Source: a virus
Taxonomy: Duplodnaviria; Caudoviricetes
Strand: one strand, 5' to 3'
Length of the DNA: 41,619 bases
IMG/VR virus record: IMGVR_UViG_3300024181_000010
Coordinates: 1-41,619 of that record
The notes below the pieces were generated by a model, which did no database searches, was not told where the DNA came from, and worked only from the letters and a program-made list of their open reading frames with translations. Below are positions 4,659 to 38,196 of the stretch, one piece after another (the first letter of the stretch is position 1; each line of letters starts with the position of its first letter). The position numbers and the translations under genes are program-made.

Positions 4659-5332
4659 GCGGTATTGATGACCTACGCCCGGGCGACATCGGGTTCGGCC
4701 CCATCCGGGGCGGCGCCGGCCTGCTGGTGTCCGCCGGGCAGTTGTTGCTGGGCGAGGGGTTCCGGGTGGGCGCGCTGGACATCCGGCACGTGTTCGTGGT
4801 GGTAGAGGCGCTGCACGATGAGGGCCCATCCGCGCAGTACCCGACCGGCGTGATCAACAAAGGCAGCATCGTGGAGGCGGAGCCGGGTGGCGCCGTCGAA
4901 TCGCCGCTCATGCTGGATCACTGGACGCGGAAGTTCGCCTACGTCCGAATCCCCGAGGACTACCCCGGCCAGGCGGACGACACCGCGGCGATCGCCCGCG
5001 CGATGATCGGTACGCCGTACTCGTTCGCGTCGTATGCGGCACTGGCCGCGTGGCGGATGGGCATGAAGACGCCGAAGCTGGAACGCTGGATCAACCGGCG
5101 TGGTCCTGCGGTGGAGATCGAGACACAGCATCGCCTGAACCCGTCGCCGCTCGCCAGGGATTATCACCTCCCCCGCGAGGCCATCTGCTCCGTGCTGGCC
5201 GATCAGGCGTGGTCGCTGACCGGCAAGAAGATCATGGAGGGGGTGGCGCATCAGTGCGTGACGCCCGGTGCGCTAGCCCGACGCTTGCTGACCTATCCGG
5301 GCGCGGAGTGGATCTGGCCGGGGATCTCATGA
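4655..5332 (+). CDS. Permuted papain-like (YiiX/YebB-type NlpC/P60) cysteine hydrolase
   Basis: LRPGDIGF...RHVFVV...IVEAEPGG...IGTPYSF...ICSVLADQAW...VTPGAL; His precedes Cys. Confidence 0.75.
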   Translation: MSGIDDLRPGDIGFGPIRGGAGLLVSAGQLLLGEGFRVGALDIRHVFVVVEALHDEGPSAQYPTGVINKGSIVEAEPGGAVESPLMLDHWTRKFAYVRIPEDYPGQADDTAAIARAMIGTPYSFASYAALAAWRMGMKTPKLERWINRRGPAVEIETQHRLNPSPLARDYHLPREAICSVLADQAWSLTGKKIMEGVAHQCVTPGALARRLLTYPGAEWIWPGIS

Positions 5333-5523
5333 GTCCGGCCACGTATCTGCTGCTCGCGCTGGCGCTGTGCACGTCGTTCGGGATCGTGGCGTTTCTGATC
5401 CCGCGGGAGCCGCCCGGGGCGGTGATGCCGGAGGCGGACCACCGTGGCCGGCACCGGGCCGATGACGAAAACGGCGATACCGTCCGGTTGGCCGAGTCGC
5501 GGTTGCGGCACATCAAGCGATGA
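5329..5523 (+). CDS. Small single-TM membrane protein
   Basis: ATGA overlap; hydrophobic YLLLALALCTSFGIVAFLI. Confidence 0.65.
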   Translation: MSPATYLLLALALCTSFGIVAFLIPREPPGAVMPEADHRGRHRADDENGDTVRLAESRLRHIKR

Positions 5524-5530
5524 TCACAGT

Positions 5531-5573
5531 AAGCGGCACCTGAGCCCTTCTCCTGCTCAGGTGCCGCTTCTTT
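5531..5573 (+). terminator. Intrinsic terminator
   Basis: 15-bp stem AAGCGGCACCTGAGC/GCTCAGGTGCCGCTT followed by CTTT. Confidence 0.8.
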
Positions 5574-5585
5574 GCATTCTAGGGG

Positions 5586-5615
5586 TTGCGCCTGATCTTA
5601 TGGGCTTGCTATACT
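5586..5615 (+). promoter_or_regulatory. Promoter for a leaderless transcript starting at ATG 5622
   Basis: TTGCGC, 18 bp, TG-extended TATACT, 6 nt, ATG. Confidence 0.75.
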
Positions 5616-5621
5616 GATGTC

Positions 5622-5831
5622 ATGGCGAGAATCATCCTGAAAGGCAACGTCGCAGACGTTGAGCTGGTCACTGACTCCGAGGATGGTCAGGTGATCGCAA
5701 AGTGCGTCACCCACGACTTCGGGGCGGGCGGCGTGAAGGCGGGCGAATGCCCGTGGAGCGAGCGATACGACTGCATGGACGACGCGACCGAGTACGCCGC
5801 GGACCACGCGGACACGGGGAGGCAGTCATGA
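5622..5831 (+). CDS. Hypothetical protein (C...H...C...H pattern)
   Basis: Leaderless ATG 5622; coupled to the next gene. Confidence 0.7.
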   Translation: MARIILKGNVADVELVTDSEDGQVIAKCVTHDFGAGGVKAGECPWSERYDCMDDATEYAADHADTGRQS

Positions 5832-5989
5832 CCAAGAAGAAGTGCGAGACGAACGCGGCAGGCACGGGCAAGAGCGGATTCTCCGCCTTCTGCGCCACTG
5901 TGCACGGATTCATCAGCGGCGGCCACGCAACCGCGCAGGACGCGGCCAGGGCGGGCGAGGCACACAAGGCGAAGGGCGCGAAGAAGTGA
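5828..5989 (+). CDS. Small hypothetical protein (53 aa)
   Basis: ATGA/GTGA overlaps on both sides. Confidence 0.6.
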   Translation: MTKKKCETNAAGTGKSGFSAFCATVHGFISGGHATAQDAARAGEAHKAKGAKK

Positions 5990-6930
5990 CCAAGCTCGGC
6001 AAGCTCTGGACGGCAGGCATCGCGTACGTGTCCCTGCTGGTGGGTGCCGGTCTGTCCGTGGCCGGCAACCTCGCGGACACCTATCGCACGCGCGGCGCGG
6101 ACATCGACAACCTGGACAAGGTGATGGCCGCAGGCTGGCCGATCCTGGTGCTGCTGGCCATCGAGATGTTCGTGTCCCCGCGCTGGTCGCCCGCGCGGAT
6201 GTTCCAGGCGTGGCGCTGGATCGGCTGCCTGGCCGTCGGGGGCATGGCCATGGTGGTCTCCTGGACGCACCTGCATGACCTGATGGCCAGCCGCGGACAG
6301 CTCTACATCGTGTCCGTGCTCGGTCCGCTGGCCATCGACGGCATGGCCATCATGGCCACCGGTCTCATCCTGTCCACGCGTGTCCGCGGACATGCGCCGG
6401 ACACGGACATCCGCCAACGCGTGGCCATGACCGCGCCGGACGTGGCCACGTTCAAAGAGAAGATGTCCGCGTCCATGACCGTGGACGCGGACACCAGGGA
6501 CACGATCATGCGAGCCAACGTGGCCGCGGCCATGGCGGACACGGACATTCACTTTGACGCCGATGGACATGACCGCTGGGCGGATCTCGTGTCCGCGGAC
6601 ACGGACCTGATGTCCTGGGCGGACGGCCATGACCGCGCGGTCACGGACATGGGGCAGGAGCTGGCCACCGAGGCGGAGCGGTACGTCCAGGACATCATGT
6701 CCGCGGACACGTTGCCTACGCGGACGCGGACACCGTCCGGTGCGTCCGCACCGGCAGAGTTCGTGGCCATGGTCACGGCGTGGAATCCGATCGAGCTGGA
6801 CCGCGCGGACATGGTCAAGCTGTCCGCGGCCTACTTCGGGGTGTCCGACCGGACGGCGCGCCGCTGGCTGTCCGCGGTCACGGGCGCGCCGATGTCCGGC
6901 GCGCCTGATTCAACCACTAGTGAAAGGTGA
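5986..6930 (+). CDS. DUF2637/Spd-like membrane protein with C-terminal HTH
   Basis: About 4 N-terminal TM segments (GLSVAGN, AAGWPILVLLAIEM, VSWTHLHDL, GPLAIDGM), low-complexity linker, C-terminal LSAAYFGVSDRTARRWL. Confidence 0.7.
   Translation: MTKLGKLWTAGIAYVSLLVGAGLSVAGNLADTYRTRGADIDNLDKVMAAGWPILVLLAIEMFVSPRWSPARMFQAWRWIGCLAVGGMAMVVSWTHLHDLMASRGQLYIVSVLGPLAIDGMAIMATGLILSTRVRGHAPDTDIRQRVAMTAPDVATFKEKMSASMTVDADTRDTIMRANVAAAMADTDIHFDADGHDRWADLVSADTDLMSWADGHDRAVTDMGQELATEAERYVQDIMSADTLPTRTRTPSGASAPAEFVAMVTAWNPIELDRADMVKLSAAYFGVSDRTARRWLSAVTGAPMSGAPDSTTSER
6029..6897. repeat. Dense TGTCC/GGACA motif array (TG[TGA]CC family) within the CDS
   Basis: Hand count about 32 TGTCC/GGACA; TGTCCGCGGACA at 6381, 6590, 6698; variants at 6521 and 6869. 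Confidence 0.85.
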
Positions 6931-6935
6931 AGAGC

Positions 6936-7091
6936 ATGGCCAAGGGGACCGGCTTCGTTCCGTGCACCAACTGCGGCGGAAGTGGCGCGGTGAACACCAC
7001 CGAGATTTATAACGAGAACGGGAAGACCAAGACCAGGACCGTCCGCAAGGTCTGCACCACCTGCGGCGGCAAGGGCGGCTTCCACGTCTGA
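6936..7091 (+). CDS. 51-aa DnaJ-type zinc-finger protein (not in ORF track)
   Basis: MAKGTGFVPCTNCGGSG...VCTTCGGKGGFHV: two CxxCxGxG repeats; AAGGTGA RBS. Confidence 0.8.
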   Translation: MAKGTGFVPCTNCGGSGAVNTTEIYNENGKTKTRTVRKVCTTCGGKGGFHV

Positions 7092-7100
7092 GATGGCAGG

Positions 7101-7137
7101 AAGCCCCGGAGCGGCAGGAGTGCTCCGGGGCTTTCTT
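7101..7137. terminator. Probable bidirectional terminator between convergent genes
   Basis: AAGCCCCGGAGC/GCTCCGGGGCTT stem followed by TCTT. Confidence 0.75.
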
Positions 7138-7175
7138 GCGGAGGTGGTGCGATGCAAATCGAGGCGAGTCTCAGC

Positions 7176-8732
7176 CTAACCGGTGCGAGCAAGAACGAAC
7201 AGATCGAGGTCCGACGGGTCGTATAGCGCGGTCCGGTTCGGCCCTTCCGCCACCGGCTCGGGGAACGTCTCCGCGTTGGCGTTTCGCCAGTTGCGCAGTT
7301 GCGTCAAGCCGATACTCCGGCTGTTGGCGAACTCTCGCAGAGACAGTGCATCAACAGCCTCTGACCTGACGTTACGCGCGTTCTCAGTTGTTGCTGATTG
7401 CCCCAGCATCATGGCCGGCACGTCCGGCGCCGGGGCACCCCCGGTAGCCCACTCGATCAGCCGCGCCTCCTGCTTCTTGATGTCGCAGAACGGCGCCTGG
7501 AACTCCTTCAGGGCATCGCCCACCACCAGGTGCCAGCGGCCCGGCATGCCGGCGTGCTTCGGGATGGGCCGGATGCTGGTCAGCATGCGCCACGCGTTGC
7601 CGGTCGCCTTGCCCATCACCCGGCCACCGAACGACTCCCGGCCTTCGGGCCCACCGGTCACCTTCGCGGTCACACTCTGGCCGGCCAGGAGGATGTGCAC
7701 GCGCATCTCCCGGCCCATGTTGGCCAGGTTCGCCAGTGCCGTCAGGGCCGGGCTCATGCCCTTGCCCTCGATGCTCTTCCAGTAGCTGCGCAGCCTGTTC
7801 GTGGCGCTGGTCATCTCCTCGAGGACGGCCACCAGCGGGACCAGCAAGGCCGGATCCCCGCCGGACGAGACGAACCGTGCCCGGCGCAGAAGCTCGCCGT
7901 CCAGCCAGAGCAGGGCTTCGTGCAGTTCCTCGCTCTCCGCGGCGTACAGCACGCCGGGGATGCGCCGTAGCCACATGTGGCTGACGAACTTGGCGTCCAG
8001 GCAGAGCACGCCGTAGCCGCGCCGCATGAACTGCGCCACCAGCCAGGCCAGGAGCTCGCTTTTGCCGGCCATGGACTGGGCGTTGATCAGCAGGTGCGGG
8101 CTGTCCGCGGTCAGGTCGAAATCGACCTGCTGTCCGGCAGGTCCGGCGCCCATCACAAGATCCGTGTCCGCGGCCATGTCCACGGCGCTGAGCATGTCCG
8201 CCATGCCCACGGACTTCGGTGGCTTGGCCGGCATGGTGAAGTGTCCGTACGGCTTACGTCCGGTCAGTGTCCACGTGGCCACGGTGCCGGACACGGACAG
8301 CCGTTGCTCGAGCAGCCGATGGATCGTGGCCATGTCCTCCTTCGTGGCCGGCCAGTCCATCGGGACATGGACACGGATGTCCGCGGACTCACGGTCACGG
8401 AAGTTCTTGGGGATGTCCACGTGGACAAGACCTTGTCCGCTCGGTGTCCGCGCGCGGATGGCGTTGTCCAGCACGATGGCCACCGGCTGGTGGACATGGC
8501 GCCGGAATGTCCACGTGGCCACGTAGCGGACAGCGCGGTGTCCGGCCATGGCCGCGGACATGACCGCGTACGCCAGCAGCGGCCACCACCACGCCCACGG
8601 CCACATGGCTGTCAGCAACATGGCAATTCCCAGGTTCCGCTTGGCCATGGTGCGGACACGGGTGTCCATGCCGCGGTGGCCGGCCAGGAGCGTGCGCCAT
8701 ACCGCGTCGTATGCACGTGCACGTGGGTTCAC
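7176..8732 (-). CDS. FtsK/SpoIIIE-family TraB-like DNA translocase (N-terminal TM, C-terminal HTH)
   Basis: TM segments at the N-terminus; SPHLLINAQSMAGKS (Walker A), CLDAK, VAVLEEM (Walker B), GREMRVHILLAGQS; C-terminal LSLREFA...LTQLRNWR...FPEP. Confidence 0.85.
   Translation of the reverse strand: MNPRARAYDAVWRTLLAGHRGMDTRVRTMAKRNLGIAMLLTAMWPWAWWWPLLAYAVMSAAMAGHRAVRYVATWTFRRHVHQPVAIVLDNAIRARTPSGQGLVHVDIPKNFRDRESADIRVHVPMDWPATKEDMATIHRLLEQRLSVSGTVATWTLTGRKPYGHFTMPAKPPKSVGMADMLSAVDMAADTDLVMGAGPAGQQVDFDLTADSPHLLINAQSMAGKSELLAWLVAQFMRRGYGVLCLDAKFVSHMWLRRIPGVLYAAESEELHEALLWLDGELLRRARFVSSGGDPALLVPLVAVLEEMTSATNRLRSYWKSIEGKGMSPALTALANLANMGREMRVHILLAGQSVTAKVTGGPEGRESFGGRVMGKATGNAWRMLTSIRPIPKHAGMPGRWHLVVGDALKEFQAPFCDIKKQEARLIEWATGGAPAPDVPAMMLGQSATTENARNVRSEAVDALSLREFANSRSIGLTQLRNWRNANAETFPEPVAEGPNRTALYDPSDLDLFVLARTG
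8102..8667. repeat. Second TGTCC/GGACA motif array, limited to the 5' third of the TraB-like gene
   Basis: Hand count about 25 copies; palindromic pairs at 8102, 8165, 8414 (TGTCCACGTGGACA) and 8549; none seen in about 7200-8100. Confidence 0.85.
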
Positions 8733-8810
8733 AATATTGACCCTAGCGCACGGTTAACCGGACCGTTAACCGTCGGGTACGATGCTCGGCAAAGCGTGCA
8801 AGTTGCACAT
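8733..8810. promoter_or_regulatory. Divergent control region: leaderless promoter of the TraB-like gene plus palindromic sites
   Basis: Minus-strand TAGGGT (8740-45) 7 nt before GTG 8732; CGGTTAACCG 8751-60, CCGTTAACCG 8763-72, GTGCAAGTTGCAC. Confidence 0.6.
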
Positions 8811-8827
8811 CTAGTAGGGATGTGGAG

Positions 8828-8992
8828 ATGACCGGACATAGGGATACTCGCCCGGCCAACTGGAAGAAGACCGTGGTGCGACTGCGCCGCGCCGCACAGG
8901 AGCTTCAGGTCCACGGGTTCAAGGTGGTGGAGCCGGAAGATCTTGAGATCCCGCCCCATCAACGGATTGCGGAACCGTCAACCGTTAAGTAA
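8828..8992 (+). CDS. Possible 54-aa protein (not in ORF track)
   Basis: Open frame MTGHRDTRPANWKKTVVRLRRAAQELQVHGFKVVEP... fills the gap. Confidence 0.45.
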   Translation: MTGHRDTRPANWKKTVVRLRRAAQELQVHGFKVVEPEDLEIPPHQRIAEPSTVK

Positions 8993-9002
8993 TACTGGAC
9001 CC

Positions 9003-9329
9003 ATGGACGGTCCGGCTGTGAGCGGCAGAGATCCCCGCGGCCGGACCTTCGCTCTCTCCGACGGGATGGCAGGCATGTTCGAGCGCAGCACGGTGACCGG
9101 ACGCTACTGGACGCGCGCCGGCTTGCACGAGGGGCTCTGGCCGTTCGAGCTGCGCGACGGGGCGGAAGGCATGCCCGTGTCTGCGCCGTGGGATCCCAGC
9201 ACACAGATCCCCACCCAGAAGTACGGCGTCACGTGGGTATCCATCGTCTGCTGCGGACCGGGCGCGCACCTGCCGGAGTCAGAGAGCGTCACGCGTCACG
9301 CCGACGGGAGGGTTACGCGGTCATGCTGA
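9003..9329 (+). CDS. Hypothetical protein, leaderless start
   Basis: TTGCGG (8967-72), 18 bp, AATACT (8991-96), 6 nt, ATG 9003. Confidence 0.6.
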   Translation: MDGPAVSGRDPRGRTFALSDGMAGMFERSTVTGRYWTRAGLHEGLWPFELRDGAEGMPVSAPWDPSTQIPTQKYGVTWVSIVCCGPGAHLPESESVTRHADGRVTRSC

Positions 9330-9589
9330 CCACGATGATCGTGATCGACCGACTGCTCTGGTACAACCCGCATTACCAGCGGATGGTGTCGCTCCCCTCG
9401 CTGTCGAATCATCACCCGATCCGGCTCACGCTGTATTCCATGCTGACCGGGCCGGACGATTGCGACACGCCGTCCAACGAGATCTACTGCCCGTGCGACG
9501 AGAAGATCCCATGGAGGTCGGGATCGGTCGGCGAAGCGCTGGAACTGTCCCGCAACCACCTGCGCGAGAAGCACGGAAAGTTGCTGTGA
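9323..9589 (+). CDS. Hypothetical protein with possible Zn ligands (CPC...H...H)
   Basis: GGAGG RBS, ATG 9323, GTGA overlap with the next gene. Confidence 0.6.
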   Translation: MLTTMIVIDRLLWYNPHYQRMVSLPSLSNHHPIRLTLYSMLTGPDDCDTPSNEIYCPCDEKIPWRSGSVGEALELSRNHLREKHGKLL

Positions 9590-10068
9590 TCCTGTTCCCG
9601 CGCGCCCGGCGCCGCTCCCCCGGCATCTACTGGTATCGCACGCGCCGGCACCTCAAGCGCGGCACCGAATGGGGTTACGTCGGCAAGAGCAACCATCTGG
9701 ACTTGCGCGCCGACTGCCACGAGGGCAGGTGCACGCGTCATCCCGCATGTGCGGGAGGCAAACCGTGGTCGGACCTGATCGTCCGGCGCCGCTCGCTCGA
9801 GTTGCCCTGGTGGCTCGGCTGGCAATGGGTCACGCTGTCCCTAGAAACCGGCCTGATCTTCGCGCTGCGGCCCCGCTACAACATCCAGAAGAATCCGCGA
9901 CGTAGCAAGGTGCCATATCGCATCCAGCAGGTGCAGCGCGCGGCCAGGGAAGGCGCGCGGCGCTGGGGCGATATCGAGCACGAACCGCACGGCATGAACA
10001 TTCTGATCGCATTGACCGCCATCGCCATGATCGTTGTCGGGATCGTCGGCACGCTGACCACCAGATAG
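9586..10068 (+). CDS. GIY-YIG nuclease-like protein with a C-terminal TM helix
   Basis: GIYWY...WGYVGKS..L..R...H, LETGLIFALRPRYN; C-terminal ILIALTAIAMIVVGIVGTL. Confidence 0.7.
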   Translation: MILFPRARRRSPGIYWYRTRRHLKRGTEWGYVGKSNHLDLRADCHEGRCTRHPACAGGKPWSDLIVRRRSLELPWWLGWQWVTLSLETGLIFALRPRYNIQKNPRRSKVPYRIQQVQRAAREGARRWGDIEHEPHGMNILIALTAIAMIVVGIVGTLTTR

Positions 10069-10077
10069 AGGGCACCG

Positions 10078-10509
10078 ATGAACGAACTCGATCGCACCCT
10101 GATCATGAAGCAACCGGCCGTCATCACCAGCGCTCGCCCGGTGCACACGCTCACCGCGCCGTATCATGCCAAAGCGGATCTTGTCGCCGCGGTGACACGC
10201 CAGGCGCGCCGCGGCGAGATCCGCCCACTTACCGCGCGTCCCCGCTACAACCCGGACCGCGGACTCTGGGAGCAGCCGGTGGAGCGCCTCCGGCCACCGG
10301 CGCCGGCCTGGACCCGGCCTGCAGTCATCATCGGCGCCATCATGACAGGACTGTCATCCCTGGTGATGCTGGGCTGGTGGGTGCTGACCTCACTGGCCGC
10401 GGCGCCGCTCGCGCTGTTCCTGATCGCCGTGCTGTGCTGGCTGGCCGCGGTCATCCGCGCCGGCAAGCGGCAGACGGTGAACGTGACGAACAATGTGACC
10501 ATCAGGTAG
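10078..10509 (+). CDS. Two-TM membrane protein (Spd-like candidate)
   Basis: Basic N-terminal domain and two hydrophobic segments; same operon as the GIY-YIG gene. Confidence 0.65.
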   Translation: MNELDRTLIMKQPAVITSARPVHTLTAPYHAKADLVAAVTRQARRGEIRPLTARPRYNPDRGLWEQPVERLRPPAPAWTRPAVIIGAIMTGLSSLVMLGWWVLTSLAAAPLALFLIAVLCWLAAVIRAGKRQTVNVTNNVTIR

Positions 10510-33556: not shown

Positions 33557-34015
33557 TTACGCATCGGTCCGGGCGAGACAAGCAGGGCAGTCCGCCAGAC
33601 CCGGATCCGTCACCAGGCGATACCGCGTGCCCGGATCCGCCGCAGCGCAGGCCGGCATGTCACGGACGCGCAGATGAACGGGCGCCGTGGTCAGCGTGGT
33701 GCGCACGATGTCGCGCCCGGTGTGCGCCGTGCTCGCCTCCACCAGCCCCAGGCGCAGGCACTCGTTCACGATGCGGGTCAGGTGGATGTCGTCCCATCCG
33801 CCGATCATGTGCCAGGTACGGCCTGCCGGGACGACCAGCGCGCCGCGCTCGATCCGGTGAATGAGCCGCGCGGCGTCCAGGTCGGTCACGTGGTTGCGGA
33901 AGCGGGTGGCGTCCGGGGTGTCCTCGCCGGCCAGGCAGTGCGCGCCTGCCCGGGCGATGAGGTCCAAATCCCGCTGCGAGAGATCTCCGAGGAGGTCAAG
34001 GTTCAGGTCTGTCAT
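33557..34015 (-). CDS. Hypothetical protein, leaderless start
   Basis: TG-extended TATACT 6 nt before ATG 34015; C-terminal H...C...CPAC. Confidence 0.65.
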   Translation of the reverse strand: MTDLNLDLLGDLSQRDLDLIARAGAHCLAGEDTPDATRFRNHVTDLDAARLIHRIERGALVVPAGRTWHMIGGWDDIHLTRIVNECLRLGLVEASTAHTGRDIVRTTLTTAPVHLRVRDMPACAAADPGTRYRLVTDPGLADCPACLARTDA

Positions 34016-34260
34016 GAGTCGAGTATAGCAAGGTCATGCTTCAGCCGATAGAGAACCCGACCTCCATGAATATTGGCTACCCGCGTAAACCTGCCATCTT
34101 TCGCAAGGTGATGTCCCAGGCTGACCGAAGCTCCACGCGTATATATCACCCACTGCGTACGAGCCGGAAAAACTTCCTTCGGAAGCTCGCCCAGGATCTG
34201 CTGGATGGTCCACATGCCGACGCCGTAACGGTCATGAATTGCCTTCACTAGATCATCCAT
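34012..34260 (-). CDS. Small hypothetical protein (lower GC, possibly wHTH)
   Basis: TAAGAT 7 nt before ATG 34260; ATGA overlap. Confidence 0.55.
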   Translation of the reverse strand: MDDLVKAIHDRYGVGMWTIQQILGELPKEVFPARTQWVIYTRGASVSLGHHLAKDGRFTRVANIHGGRVLYRLKHDLAILDS

Positions 34261-34331
34261 GCCCTACATCTTACCCATCTTCTCCGTCCCGTGCTACCCG
34301 TAACGGCCAGTGACAGCGCGCGGCGCGGTTG

Positions 34332-34597
34332 GACCGATGGCCGATAGAAAATCGCTATGAAGTCAGGTTTCCCCCTCAGCCCCTCTTCTGTGTCCTATAT
34401 GTCTGTCTCTCTCTCTCTTCTCTATACGTAGCCCCGGGACTCTATCGGTCTATCGGTCTATAGGGGTATCTAGCAGGGAAAACTCAAAAAAGCTATCGGA
34501 CTACTAGCGGTCCGGCTATCGGTCCGCTACCGGTCTATCGGTCCGTCGACACAAACGGACCGGTAGACCCGGACCGGTAGGCCCAGTTCTACCGGTC
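34332..34597. repeat. Iteron-like array CTA(T/C/G)CGG(T/A)C with CT-rich and A-rich tracts; candidate replication origin
   Basis: Direct copies at 34442, 34450, 34493, 34504, 34516, 34527, 34535, 34589; inverted at 34558, 34572; non-coding, next to the primase-helicase gene. Confidence 0.75.
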
Positions 34598-36989: not shown

Positions 36990-37622
36990 TCACGGGACCG
37001 GGGTCGGCCGCGCGGAGGATTCTTCGGCAGTCATCTCGGCCAGCCATCGCAACAGCGTGGGCAGGTGCTTGTCAGGGCCGAACGCCAAGAGCGTTCCGTC
37101 GACGGAGTCACAACTCATGGCCTGCGCAACATGTAGGCGCCTACGCGAATTAACCCGCCCCATATGCACCCACTTATGACGAATCTTCGCCTCCCTGGCG
37201 AGACCTGTTGCCGCAGGTCCCTCTTTCCATGCGTCATCTCCGCCAATGAAAAGAACGTCGAATTGGTCCCACGGAATACTTAGGCACTCCAGCCCATTTT
37301 GCGCCACTAGCGCAGCGGGAAAACCCAGAGAGCGAATCTTCGGAAGCATGGGGAGTGAACGCTTCAGGGTTGCGCGAGCATCGCATACCACGTCAGGGGC
37401 GACAACAAAACGACAGTTCGTGGACGCGTACTTACGATCCTTCAGCCAGGACAGGAAGGCCGCATCTCCAGGATACTTGTTGCCGAATACCGCATTGTCC
37501 GCACACCATGTGACGCCATCACCAATGGCATTCCCGCTTGCCGGATTGACGATCTGATCCAGCAAGCGGGACGCCATGGCCTCACGTACGCGCGGCCCTG
37601 ACGCGGTAGCGAAGTACCGCAC
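36990..37622 (-). CDS. TGT-fold (DpdA-like) transglycosylase-like protein
   Basis: WCADNAVF, VVAPDVV, LVAQNG, LFIGG, VHMGRVN, CDSVDGT in the order of TGT-barrel motifs; coupled to a YhhQ-like gene. Confidence 0.6.
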   Translation of the reverse strand: MRYFATASGPRVREAMASRLLDQIVNPASGNAIGDGVTWCADNAVFGNKYPGDAAFLSWLKDRKYASTNCRFVVAPDVVCDARATLKRSLPMLPKIRSLGFPAALVAQNGLECLSIPWDQFDVLFIGGDDAWKEGPAATGLAREAKIRHKWVHMGRVNSRRRLHVAQAMSCDSVDGTLLAFGPDKHLPTLLRWLAEMTAEESSARPTPVP

Positions 37623-38196
37623 GAACTCCTCCGATCGCCAGCAGCGGAAGCCCCACGGCCATGAGCCACTTCACACCCACCTGCCCCAGAACGGCAGGCC
37701 AGACAGGGAATCCCGCGATCCATAGGAACAAGATGGAGTCCACCACCGATCCGACCGCATTGGACGCGGTCAGCGCCCGCAACCTGCCGCGCCGCAGTAG
37801 CGGCGCATAAACTGCTGTATCCGCGACCTCAGACAGCAGGAACGCCACACCCGATGCTAGGGCGAGTGCCGGTGTAGCGATCAGGGCCGACAATCCAGCT
37901 CCCACGGCGACACAACCCAGCGATGCCCAGATCCCCGCCGTGCGGTGGACCAGGTCACGCGCAGCAAGGACGAGTCCGGCCGTGAAAGTGCCAGCCGTGA
38001 CCCATCCCGCCACCAATCCATACCGCGCCGTGAGCCAGTTGGATGCGAGGATGAGCAGCACGAAGACAAGGCCGCCGGCCGCTCCGAGCGCATAGTTACG
38101 TTCAGGCTTCAGGCGAAGCGGTGCGTCCATGTAGTGAAGTTCACAGTTCCGATCTGCACAGTTTCGCTTCTGCGTGATCGGGCATTTATCACTCAT
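37582..38196 (-). CDS. VUT/YhhQ-family (queuosine-precursor) transporter
   Basis: ASNW...AGTF...RDLVH...ASGVAFLLSEVADTAVY...SNAVGSVVDSILFL; about 6 TM segments. Confidence 0.8.
   Translation of the reverse strand: MSDKCPITQKRNCADRNCELHYMDAPLRLKPERNYALGAAGGLVFVLLILASNWLTARYGLVAGWVTAGTFTAGLVLAARDLVHRTAGIWASLGCVAVGAGLSALIATPALALASGVAFLLSEVADTAVYAPLLRRGRLRALTASNAVGSVVDSILFLWIAGFPVWPAVLGQVGVKWLMAVGLPLLAIGGVRAVLRYRVRAART

Follow-up and report, generated by a model that had tools for sequence, protein, structure and literature searches.

A selected hexamer word within the genes for a DUF2637 (SpdB2-like) membrane-HTH protein and a TraB-like ATPase of a tailed phage

Two neighboring genes of a tailed phage, one for a predicted DUF2637 (SpdB2-like) membrane protein with a C-terminal helix-turn-helix (HTH) and the other for a TraB/FtsK-like ATPase, carry within their coding sequences a total of 81 copies (44 + 37) of the hexamer TG[GT]CC[AG], with 28-34% of the bases lying in words. 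These arrays are real and they are under selection. The word is very likely read by the HTH of the DUF2637 protein itself. On balance, we think it probable that the 81 hexamers are sites for this HTH and that the protein tethers the phage DNA to the membrane by the pump, for plasmid-style spread between hyphal compartments.

The phage and its DUF2637 gene

The window (the whole stretch of DNA analyzed, 41,619 nt, to which all positions below refer) is the record of a 41.6-kb tailed phage with 66% GC, estimated by CheckV to be 94% complete. It encodes capsid, portal, terminase, primase and helicase genes. The nearest terminases among cultured phages are those of Thermobifida and Streptomyces phages (46-53%), and the named relatives of the lysin come from Actinoplanes and a Nocardioides MAG; the host is inferred to be a filamentous actinomycete. 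Neither tyrosine integrase, serine recombinase nor ParA was found in this record or in four related phage records (0/5 for each). A YhhQ/Vut_1 preQ0-transporter-like gene (36990-38196, minus strand) lies beside a phrog_15826 gene, presumably DpdA/TGT-like, and the pair makes 7-deazaguanine DNA modification possible in this phage. The segment at 34001-34500, adjoining the primase gene, has a GC content of 53% compared to 66% elsewhere; it is possibly an origin or a foreign gene.

The DUF2637 gene and the parts of its product are as follows:

5607..5615, plus strand: extended -10-like element TGcTATACT, ahead of small ORFs leading into the DUF2637 gene (by eye; the promoter scan did not list it)
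5986..6930, plus strand: gene for a DUF2637 (SpdB2-like) predicted membrane protein with C-terminal HTH, 314 aa (ORF, PF10935, homologs, AlphaFold model)
5986..6384, plus strand: N-terminal domain with four predicted helices (residues 3-39, 42-63, 71-102, 107-133), likely membrane-spanning (AlphaFold model)
6385..6744, plus strand: variable linker, partly helical in the model, ADT/MSA/GH-rich (model, sequence)
6754..6882, plus strand: three-helix HTH, residues 257-299, with helix 2 starting DRADMV and predicted recognition helix SDRTARRW (model, homologs)

The gene is an open frame of 314 codons, with GTG at 5986 and TGA at 6930. Its product scores 28.8 bits against PF10935 over residues 79-141 (curated cut-off, 22.8), which makes it a DUF2637 protein, and its nearest Atlas clusters are DUF2637 as well. 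The four helices predicted in residues 3-133 agree with the four transmembrane helices of SpdB2 proteins; three of the four segments pass the hydropathy threshold. When modeled alone, the HTH domain gives three helices without a wing, with a pLDDT of 97. Across 28 homologs, the motif S-x-R-x-x-R-R of its last helix hardly varies. The domain matches HTH_23 with an E-value of 0.009, and structure searches with the HTH only returned generic HTH and homeodomain proteins (Z no higher than 6.1); Foldseek with the whole protein gave no match. RacA ranks second among the PDB sequence matches of the HTH profile, at a non-significant E-value of 0.1. At the 3' end of the gene, 33 letters within 6891-6925 are replaced by 336 others in contigs from two public runs.

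A hexamer array in the DUF2637 gene

The first-pass annotation of this gene had reported about 32 TGTCC/GGACA, along with TGGCC and TGACC variants and five 12-mers. The count is exact (14 TGTCC and 18 GGACA within 5986-6930), the variants amount to 15 TGGCC/12 GGCCA and 6 TGACC/4 GGTCA, and all five 12-mers lie where they had been placed. The expectation of about 2 copies proved too low once coding was controlled: the rest of the window predicts 3.1 copies, shuffling of codon order 5.9, window codon usage 9.2, and permutation of the gene's own codons among synonyms 17.1 +/- 2.4 (maximum, 24 in 3000 permutations). The 32 copies exceed every null, including the codon-shuffled controls by which the annotation had proposed that the enrichment be judged. 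Copies are balanced between the strands, in line with the two orientations noted initially, but they are not scattered over different frames: 13 of the 14 TGTCC and 14 of the 18 GGACA each share one codon phase.

The repeat unit is the hexamer TG[GT]CC[AG], whose 44 copies cover 28% of the gene:

6053..6898, both strands: array 1, 44 hexamers TG[GT]CC[AG], of which 16 on the plus strand, 18 on the minus strand and 10 palindromic TGGCCA (word count)
6381..6392, also 6590 and 6698 (variants at 6521, 6764 and 6869), no strand: 12-bp palindrome TGTCCGCGGACA, two hexamers abutting head to head (sequence)

The gene has 6 12-mers of the form TGNCC-NN-GGNCA, compared to 0.9 in synonymous permutations. 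Abutting head-to-head pairs were seen 30 times, against 5 expected, in eight TGTCCG-type genes that are related and not independent. This pairing is the only arrangement that stands out, the spacing of the hexamers showing no clear 10-11 bp period. In 28 homologs pooled, the excess extends to every domain (membrane, 719 vs 418; linker, 795 vs 405; HTH, 117 vs 70). The enriched words are TG[GT]CC[AG] and TGTCCGCGGACA, rather than 2-3 copies of the pIJ101 site sps, CGTCACGTGACG.

A second array in the TraB-like gene

As with SpdB2, a TraB-like translocase is encoded together with the DUF2637 protein; the two genes are convergent and do not form one operon. The features beyond the DUF2637 gene are:

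6936..7091, plus strand: DnaJ-type zinc-finger ORF, 51 aa, with one hexamer, at the ORF start (sequence)
7096..7139, no strand: hairpin between the convergent genes, -34.8 kcal/mol, likely terminator, free of hexamers (folding)
7176..8732, minus strand: TraB/FtsK-like ATPase gene, 518 aa (FtsK_SpoIIIE, E 4e-4)
8058..8081, minus strand: Walker A-like motif AQSMAGKS (sequence)
8103..8732, both strands: array 2, 37 hexamers in TraB codons 1-210, of which 18 on the plus strand, 14 on the minus strand and 5 palindromic (word count)

The FtsK_SpoIIIE match amounts to 20.4 bits, under the cut-off of 24. Relatives of the TraB-like protein occur on 49 actinomycete plasmids, with 30-38% identity for those listed. 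By eye, its C-terminal tail looks like a winged helix; the tail has no sequence match in PDB. Array 2, missed in the first-pass annotation, occupies the non-catalytic 5' part of the gene and ends ahead of the Walker A motif and the ATPase core. Three 12-mers are found in it, at 8102, 8165 and 8549. Over the whole window, 500-bp bins with at least 12 hexamers are confined to the two arrays, the median bin having 3. There are no hexamers in the likely promoter region between 5495 and 5808, and no compact cluster of oriented 7-9-bp direct repeats is present in 5300-9600.

Directly upstream of the TraB-like gene (8751-8772) lies an operator-like inverted repeat, CGGTTAAC-N6-GTTAACCG, which the sequence AACCGTTAA near 8980 resembles. 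Beyond traB are a GIY-YIG-like gene (by eye) with a hydrophobic tail (9460-10068, plus strand) and a gene with a hydrophobic product (10078-10509, plus strand). Both are kept at the same place in 4 of 7 loci and neither has a significant Pfam match; they may belong to the DUF2637/TraB module.

Selection on DNA and its imprint on protein

Where a hexamer is possible, it is realized at 44 of 58 sites in the DUF2637 gene and at 37 of 43 in TraB codons 1-210 (76-86%). For comparison, the remainder of TraB realizes 7 of 21 possible sites, 19 other genes of the phage 163 of 549, and unrelated genes on plasmids 154 of 862; relative to the 19 phage genes, Fisher's test gives 2e-11 for the DUF2637 gene and 3e-13 for the TraB segment. 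Realization is high in the N-terminal domain (17/22) as well as in the linker (20/24). Codon positions that allow the hexamer are themselves 2.6 times more frequent per codon in the DUF2637 gene than in the 19 other genes (58/314 vs 549/7624), which indicates that amino acids have been chosen for the word. This supports the initial proposal that the motif shapes the composition of the protein.

Synonymous sites within words are conserved. Comparison of the DUF2637 gene to three relatives showed changes at four-fold G/C third positions in 0 of 59 inside words vs 10 of 112 outside (L025), 1 of 51 vs 20 of 101 (L021) and 1 of 49 vs 17 of 88 (L024). Two such comparisons for TraB gave 1 of 38 vs 9 of 57 and 2 of 33 vs 17 of 49. 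Relative to the more distant G406, the values are 8 of 42 vs 30 of 79 in the gene and 29 of 115 vs 570 of 1563 for chance copies in ten other genes; chance hexamers elsewhere are somewhat conserved too, and at this distance the contrast in the DUF2637 gene is not much stronger. The 19 genes outside the module show a mild excess of the hexamer (163 vs 97 in synonymous permutations), and 30% of their possible sites are realized, compared to 18% in unrelated plasmid genes. We attribute this mild genome-wide excess to weak genome-wide selection or to codon-pair bias. Altogether, the excess over codon controls, the realization of possible sites and the conservation of synonymous positions bear out the suggestion that selection acts on the DNA, and it does so in both arrays.

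The word varies among close relatives

The DUF2637 protein has 220 homologs, and no match among cultured phages in GenBank or plasmids in PLSDB. We analyzed 47 of 59 loci, having dropped one partial locus, seven apparent duplicates of viral records and four short fragments. With the window's own copy and the distant L066 left out, and near-duplicates and fragments included, enrichment reaches P<0.001 in 44 of 45 loci of the family. Most loci prefer the palindrome TGGCCA and some TGTCCA. TGTCCG is preferred by 8 of 28 full-length genes, with an HTH that starts xRAD[MV]V (14-33 copies vs 0-6). The same split between TGTCCG and TGGCCA types is visible in the linker tripeptides of 181 proteins.

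A TraB-like gene lies beside the DUF2637 gene in 17 of 19 long loci, the exceptions being L015 and the distant L066, and in 16 of these 17 it carries an array (the TraB gene of L019 has none). Two TraB types, about 27% identical, differ in where the array is placed: in the N-terminal part in type I, at the 5' end of the gene, and in the linker before the tail in type II, near the 3' end between ATPase and tail. Never is it mainly in the ATPase core. Phage G402, 100% complete according to CheckV, has no TraB match, yet its DUF2637 gene contains 23 TGTCC vs 2 expected. Further hexamer-rich bins outside the DUF2637 gene were noted at G402:C1:3501-4500 and G404:C1:41001-41500.

The word follows the HTH of the DUF2637 protein

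The first-pass annotation had offered two readers of the array, the HTH of the gene's own product and the translocase, and had proposed looking for words that covary with the HTH across homologs. Words do change with the HTH helix. On the HTH tree, the TGTCCG label forms a single clade (100/99); the membrane-domain tree requires 3 changes of this label and the TraB tree 2. On the tree of TraB tails, word labels are no more clustered than when shuffled (6 vs 6.4), with L009 and L046, both TGTCC-rich and of type II, forming a pair (96). The sister TraB genes of L009 and L018 carry TGTCCG and TGGCCA, respectively, each as in its own DUF2637 partner. More generally, the spectra of word variants in a TraB array and in the adjacent DUF2637 gene correlate with rho values of 0.80 and 0.81 (n=14, covering both TraB types; L019 and the near-duplicates L025 and L057 were dropped).

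Three plasmid relatives of the TraB-like protein are encoded by genes that have no array. Trees and G402 alike show that word specificity does not follow the TraB tail, as it should if the words were clt sites. The own HTH is thus favored over the translocase by the trees, by G402 and by the array-less plasmid TraBs. The DNA for the membrane domain does not follow HTH type (TGTCCG, 0-5 vs 0-4 copies, p=0.12). The covariation of linker and HTH is partly linkage because the two are inherited together, and the RAD/TGTCCG pairing is one evolutionary event. Taking these data together, we regard the C-terminal HTH of the DUF2637 gene's own product as the very probable reader.

Distant DUF2637 genes and phage VWB

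Of 89 DUF2637 genes from chromosomes or plasmids, 3 stood out and most are free of arrays, indicating that the DUF2637 family can work without one. Private words were found in such genes: GAGAC in L080, CGAAG in L102 and GGACC in L103, all three with other helices, and, as a borderline case, CGACG in L066. In a set of 113 distant DUF2637 genes, the highest densities of TG[GT]CC (9.7x, 5.2x, 3.8x and 3.6x) belong to four genes with RT[AVI]RR or RTTVRR helices, and genes whose helices read GTARR, STARR or YARR are not enriched in this word. Two of the four, L168 and L171, match the family profile over the HTH region only. As the RT[AVI]RR pattern was chosen after these two, L191, L194 and L198 are the only later checks; L191 and L198 fit, L194 does so weakly (2.5x), and L191 uses TGGCC where TGTCCG had been guessed. 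Searches of 401 actinomycete genomes with the family profile and of 56 with the distant profile gave few matches, and for this reason a broad HTH-word code rests on few genes. At the protein level only, linkers of distant homologs (P0195-P0258) look imprinted by apparent other words (AERTER, VTRPVT, STVERRP, PPDH) and go with other HTH helices.

The cultured phage VWB encodes a DUF2637 protein, gp24, with helix GQKKAQ. Its gene has 28 ACCCG vs 9 expected (maximum, 16), and the next gene, gp25, has 30 more; a strongly oriented GCACCC/ACCCG array spans gp24-gp25 (L160:3926-6518). The family profile gives no direct match to gp24, the link being through Pfam DUF2637 only. In its first half, the annotated frame of gp25 looks wrong, and another frame reads as a membrane protein.

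Proposed function and alternatives

We envisage the hexamer as the binding site of the HTH, its guanines being read by two arginines of the R-T-x-R-R motif. A 6-bp word would be too short for specificity; an oligomeric membrane protein with many HTH tails could gain avidity from dense clusters. In TGTCCG-type genes, two HTHs would likely bind the 12-bp palindrome. Clustering in two membrane-protein genes might reflect that the module travels together and that these genes are likely near the membrane during expression, hexamers accumulating wherever the protein tolerates them. The captured DNA might then be handed to the TraB-like motor, as proposed for SpdB2 and TraB. Such a hand-over cannot be the function everywhere, given the array-less TraB of L019 and the absence of TraB from G402. 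The published account of pSVH1 SpdB2 as a non-specific DNA binder (PMC4447253) also speaks against the proposal.

Alternatively, the own HTH could bind the arrays to repress, or to roadblock, transcription of two potentially toxic membrane genes, acting as a membrane-bound Kor with stoperator-like sites. All the evidence for the own HTH as reader fits this equally well, traB is toxic when unregulated and requires a repressor (PMC4447253), and some mycobacteriophage repressors stop elongation at many sites (PMC9283540). The arrays cover exactly the DUF2637 and TraB genes, and that of type I TraB genes sits at the 5' end. However, the likely promoter (5495-5808) is devoid of hexamers, the position of type II TraB arrays, near the 3' end, is a poor place for repression, and both orientations of the hexamer are equally used. 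We consider repression unlikely.

Tethering by the own HTH might instead help to position or segregate the DNA of a replicating phage or phage-plasmid in a centromere-like manner, independently of translocation. SpdA2 and its site sps affect stability, not transfer (PMC4170104), and RacA, the non-significant second-ranked PDB match, has clustered sites (PMC4914108). This reading would also suit the lack of integrase and ParA in five of five phages, and it would cover G402. It is opposed by the TraB-like gene that adjoins the DUF2637 gene in 17 of 18 long loci of the family, not counting L066, and by the extension of the array into TraB. We find it somewhat less plausible than repression.

The arrays could also be a dispersed clt, that is, loading sites for the TraB tail. 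TraB does bind short words in repeated form, and overlaps of clt with tra occur (PMC3583192); 16 of 17 TraB loci carry an array in TraB, there is no separate direct-repeat array in 5300-9600, and the tails of L009 and L046 pair. Yet the word is unclustered on the TraB and TraB-tail trees, unrelated tails go with the same word, G402 keeps its array without TraB, and the plasmid relatives of TraB lack one. Known clt words, moreover, are direct repeats of 7-9 bp and the hexamers here are unoriented. In our estimation this is, if anything, a shade less credible than the centromere-like role. A pattern produced with no protein reader, through mRNA structure, codon-pair bias or local mutation, is very improbable: array mRNA does form more stable folds than its synonymous permutations do (z -1.6 to -3.1 vs -0.4 for the ATPase core) and other phage genes show a mild excess of the hexamer, but complementary words should bring extra folding as a by-product, sites are realized at 76-86% vs 30%, copies are dispersed and not tandem, and one specific word occurs in two opposite-strand genes and varies with the HTH helix across unrelated membrane domains. 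A restriction-site or DNA-modification decoy was also considered; it leaves the covariation with the HTH unexplained.

Coming back to tethering next to the pump, one may speculate, with considerable doubt, that SpdB2-type proteins at large are sequence-specific "self-addressing" tethers, with a private HTH-word pair evolving in each element and the word being entered into that element's own transfer genes. A newly made protein would grab its own gene and give the naked genome to TraB; integrase-less phages would cross hyphal walls like conjugative plasmids, with their own DNA only, before or instead of lysis. As to how Streptomyces-type spread proteins choose DNA, the present data predict a site and the helix that would read it, and they supply natural swaps. 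They are also a strong example of protein sequence being remodeled by a signal in the DNA, and they yield a set of HTH-word pairs that can be read. With another word, the two-gene array pattern recurs in cultured VWB, which makes the question testable experimentally. In the passages of PMC4447253 drawn on here, the role of SpdB2 in phages is a one-line guess.

Comparison with known systems

SpdB2 of pSVH1 is an oligomeric four-helix pore former that binds DNA non-specifically, interacts with TraB and is required for spreading within the mycelium; it is proposed to cooperate with TraB in the spreading of Streptomyces plasmids, and has homologues on actinophages, VWB being cited as one such phage (PMC4447253). 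The phage protein shares with it four predicted N-terminal membrane-type helices, a TraB neighbor and occurrence in phage, and is predicted to bind DNA too. It differs in having a hexamer array, in its own gene and in traB (the passages of PMC4447253 drawn on give no binding site), and in lacking the N-terminal coiled coil found at aa 1-99 in pSVH1, its first membrane helix lying within the first residues. Kinship with pSVH1 SpdB2 appears indirect, via DUF2637 and VWB gp24. SpdB2 reportedly has an imperfect four-amino-acid repeat, and such an array might have left this trace in the protein. SpdB of pIJ101 is not a DUF2637 protein (3.5 bits), and no word array is present in pIJ101 spdB, spdA, tra or kilB. 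In the open-access literature, the scope of this search, no account of such arrays in genes of the DUF2637/SpdB2 kind turned up; a Gbn paper, in the part consulted, names SpdB2 only as an upregulated gene (PMC9239103).

SpdA2 of pIJ101, a 135-aa protein with an N-terminal DNA-binding region, binds the palindrome sps, a 12-bp site present in 2-3 copies, in its own gene, and the phenotype concerns segregational stability of the plasmid (PMC4170104). In both systems the site, a predicted one in the phage, lies in the reader's own coding region and imprints the protein, and in pIJ101 its synonymous removal has a phenotype (PMC4170104). Rather than one 12-mer conserved across plasmids, the phage has about 80 degenerate hexamers in two genes, with a word that varies between elements; and unlike the small SpdA2, its protein has 314 aa, an N-terminal membrane domain and a C-terminal HTH. 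The SpdA analogy drawn in the first-pass annotation is accordingly not supported as a family link, the protein being of DUF2637/SpdB2 type. Nor is its description of the array as clt-like: an FtsK-like motor beside clustered short words is common to both systems, but clt is compact, mainly non-coding and made of 7-9-bp direct repeats read by TraB, whereas the hexamers are coding, unoriented and follow the partner's HTH.

With RacA of Bacillus subtilis and its clustered ram sites (PMC4914108), the phage system has in common an HTH protein and clustered GC-rich sites with TG/CA ends; envelope anchoring is a property of RacA and is proposed here. The helices VSAKTVQRW of RacA and VSDRTARRW of the phage protein are alike (match E-value, 0.1). 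RacA differs in being soluble and DivIVA-anchored, with a wing and a 14-bp chromosomal site. By analogy, the system would work like a fusion of SpdA2/sps, with its site in its own gene, and SpdB2, a membrane spread protein.
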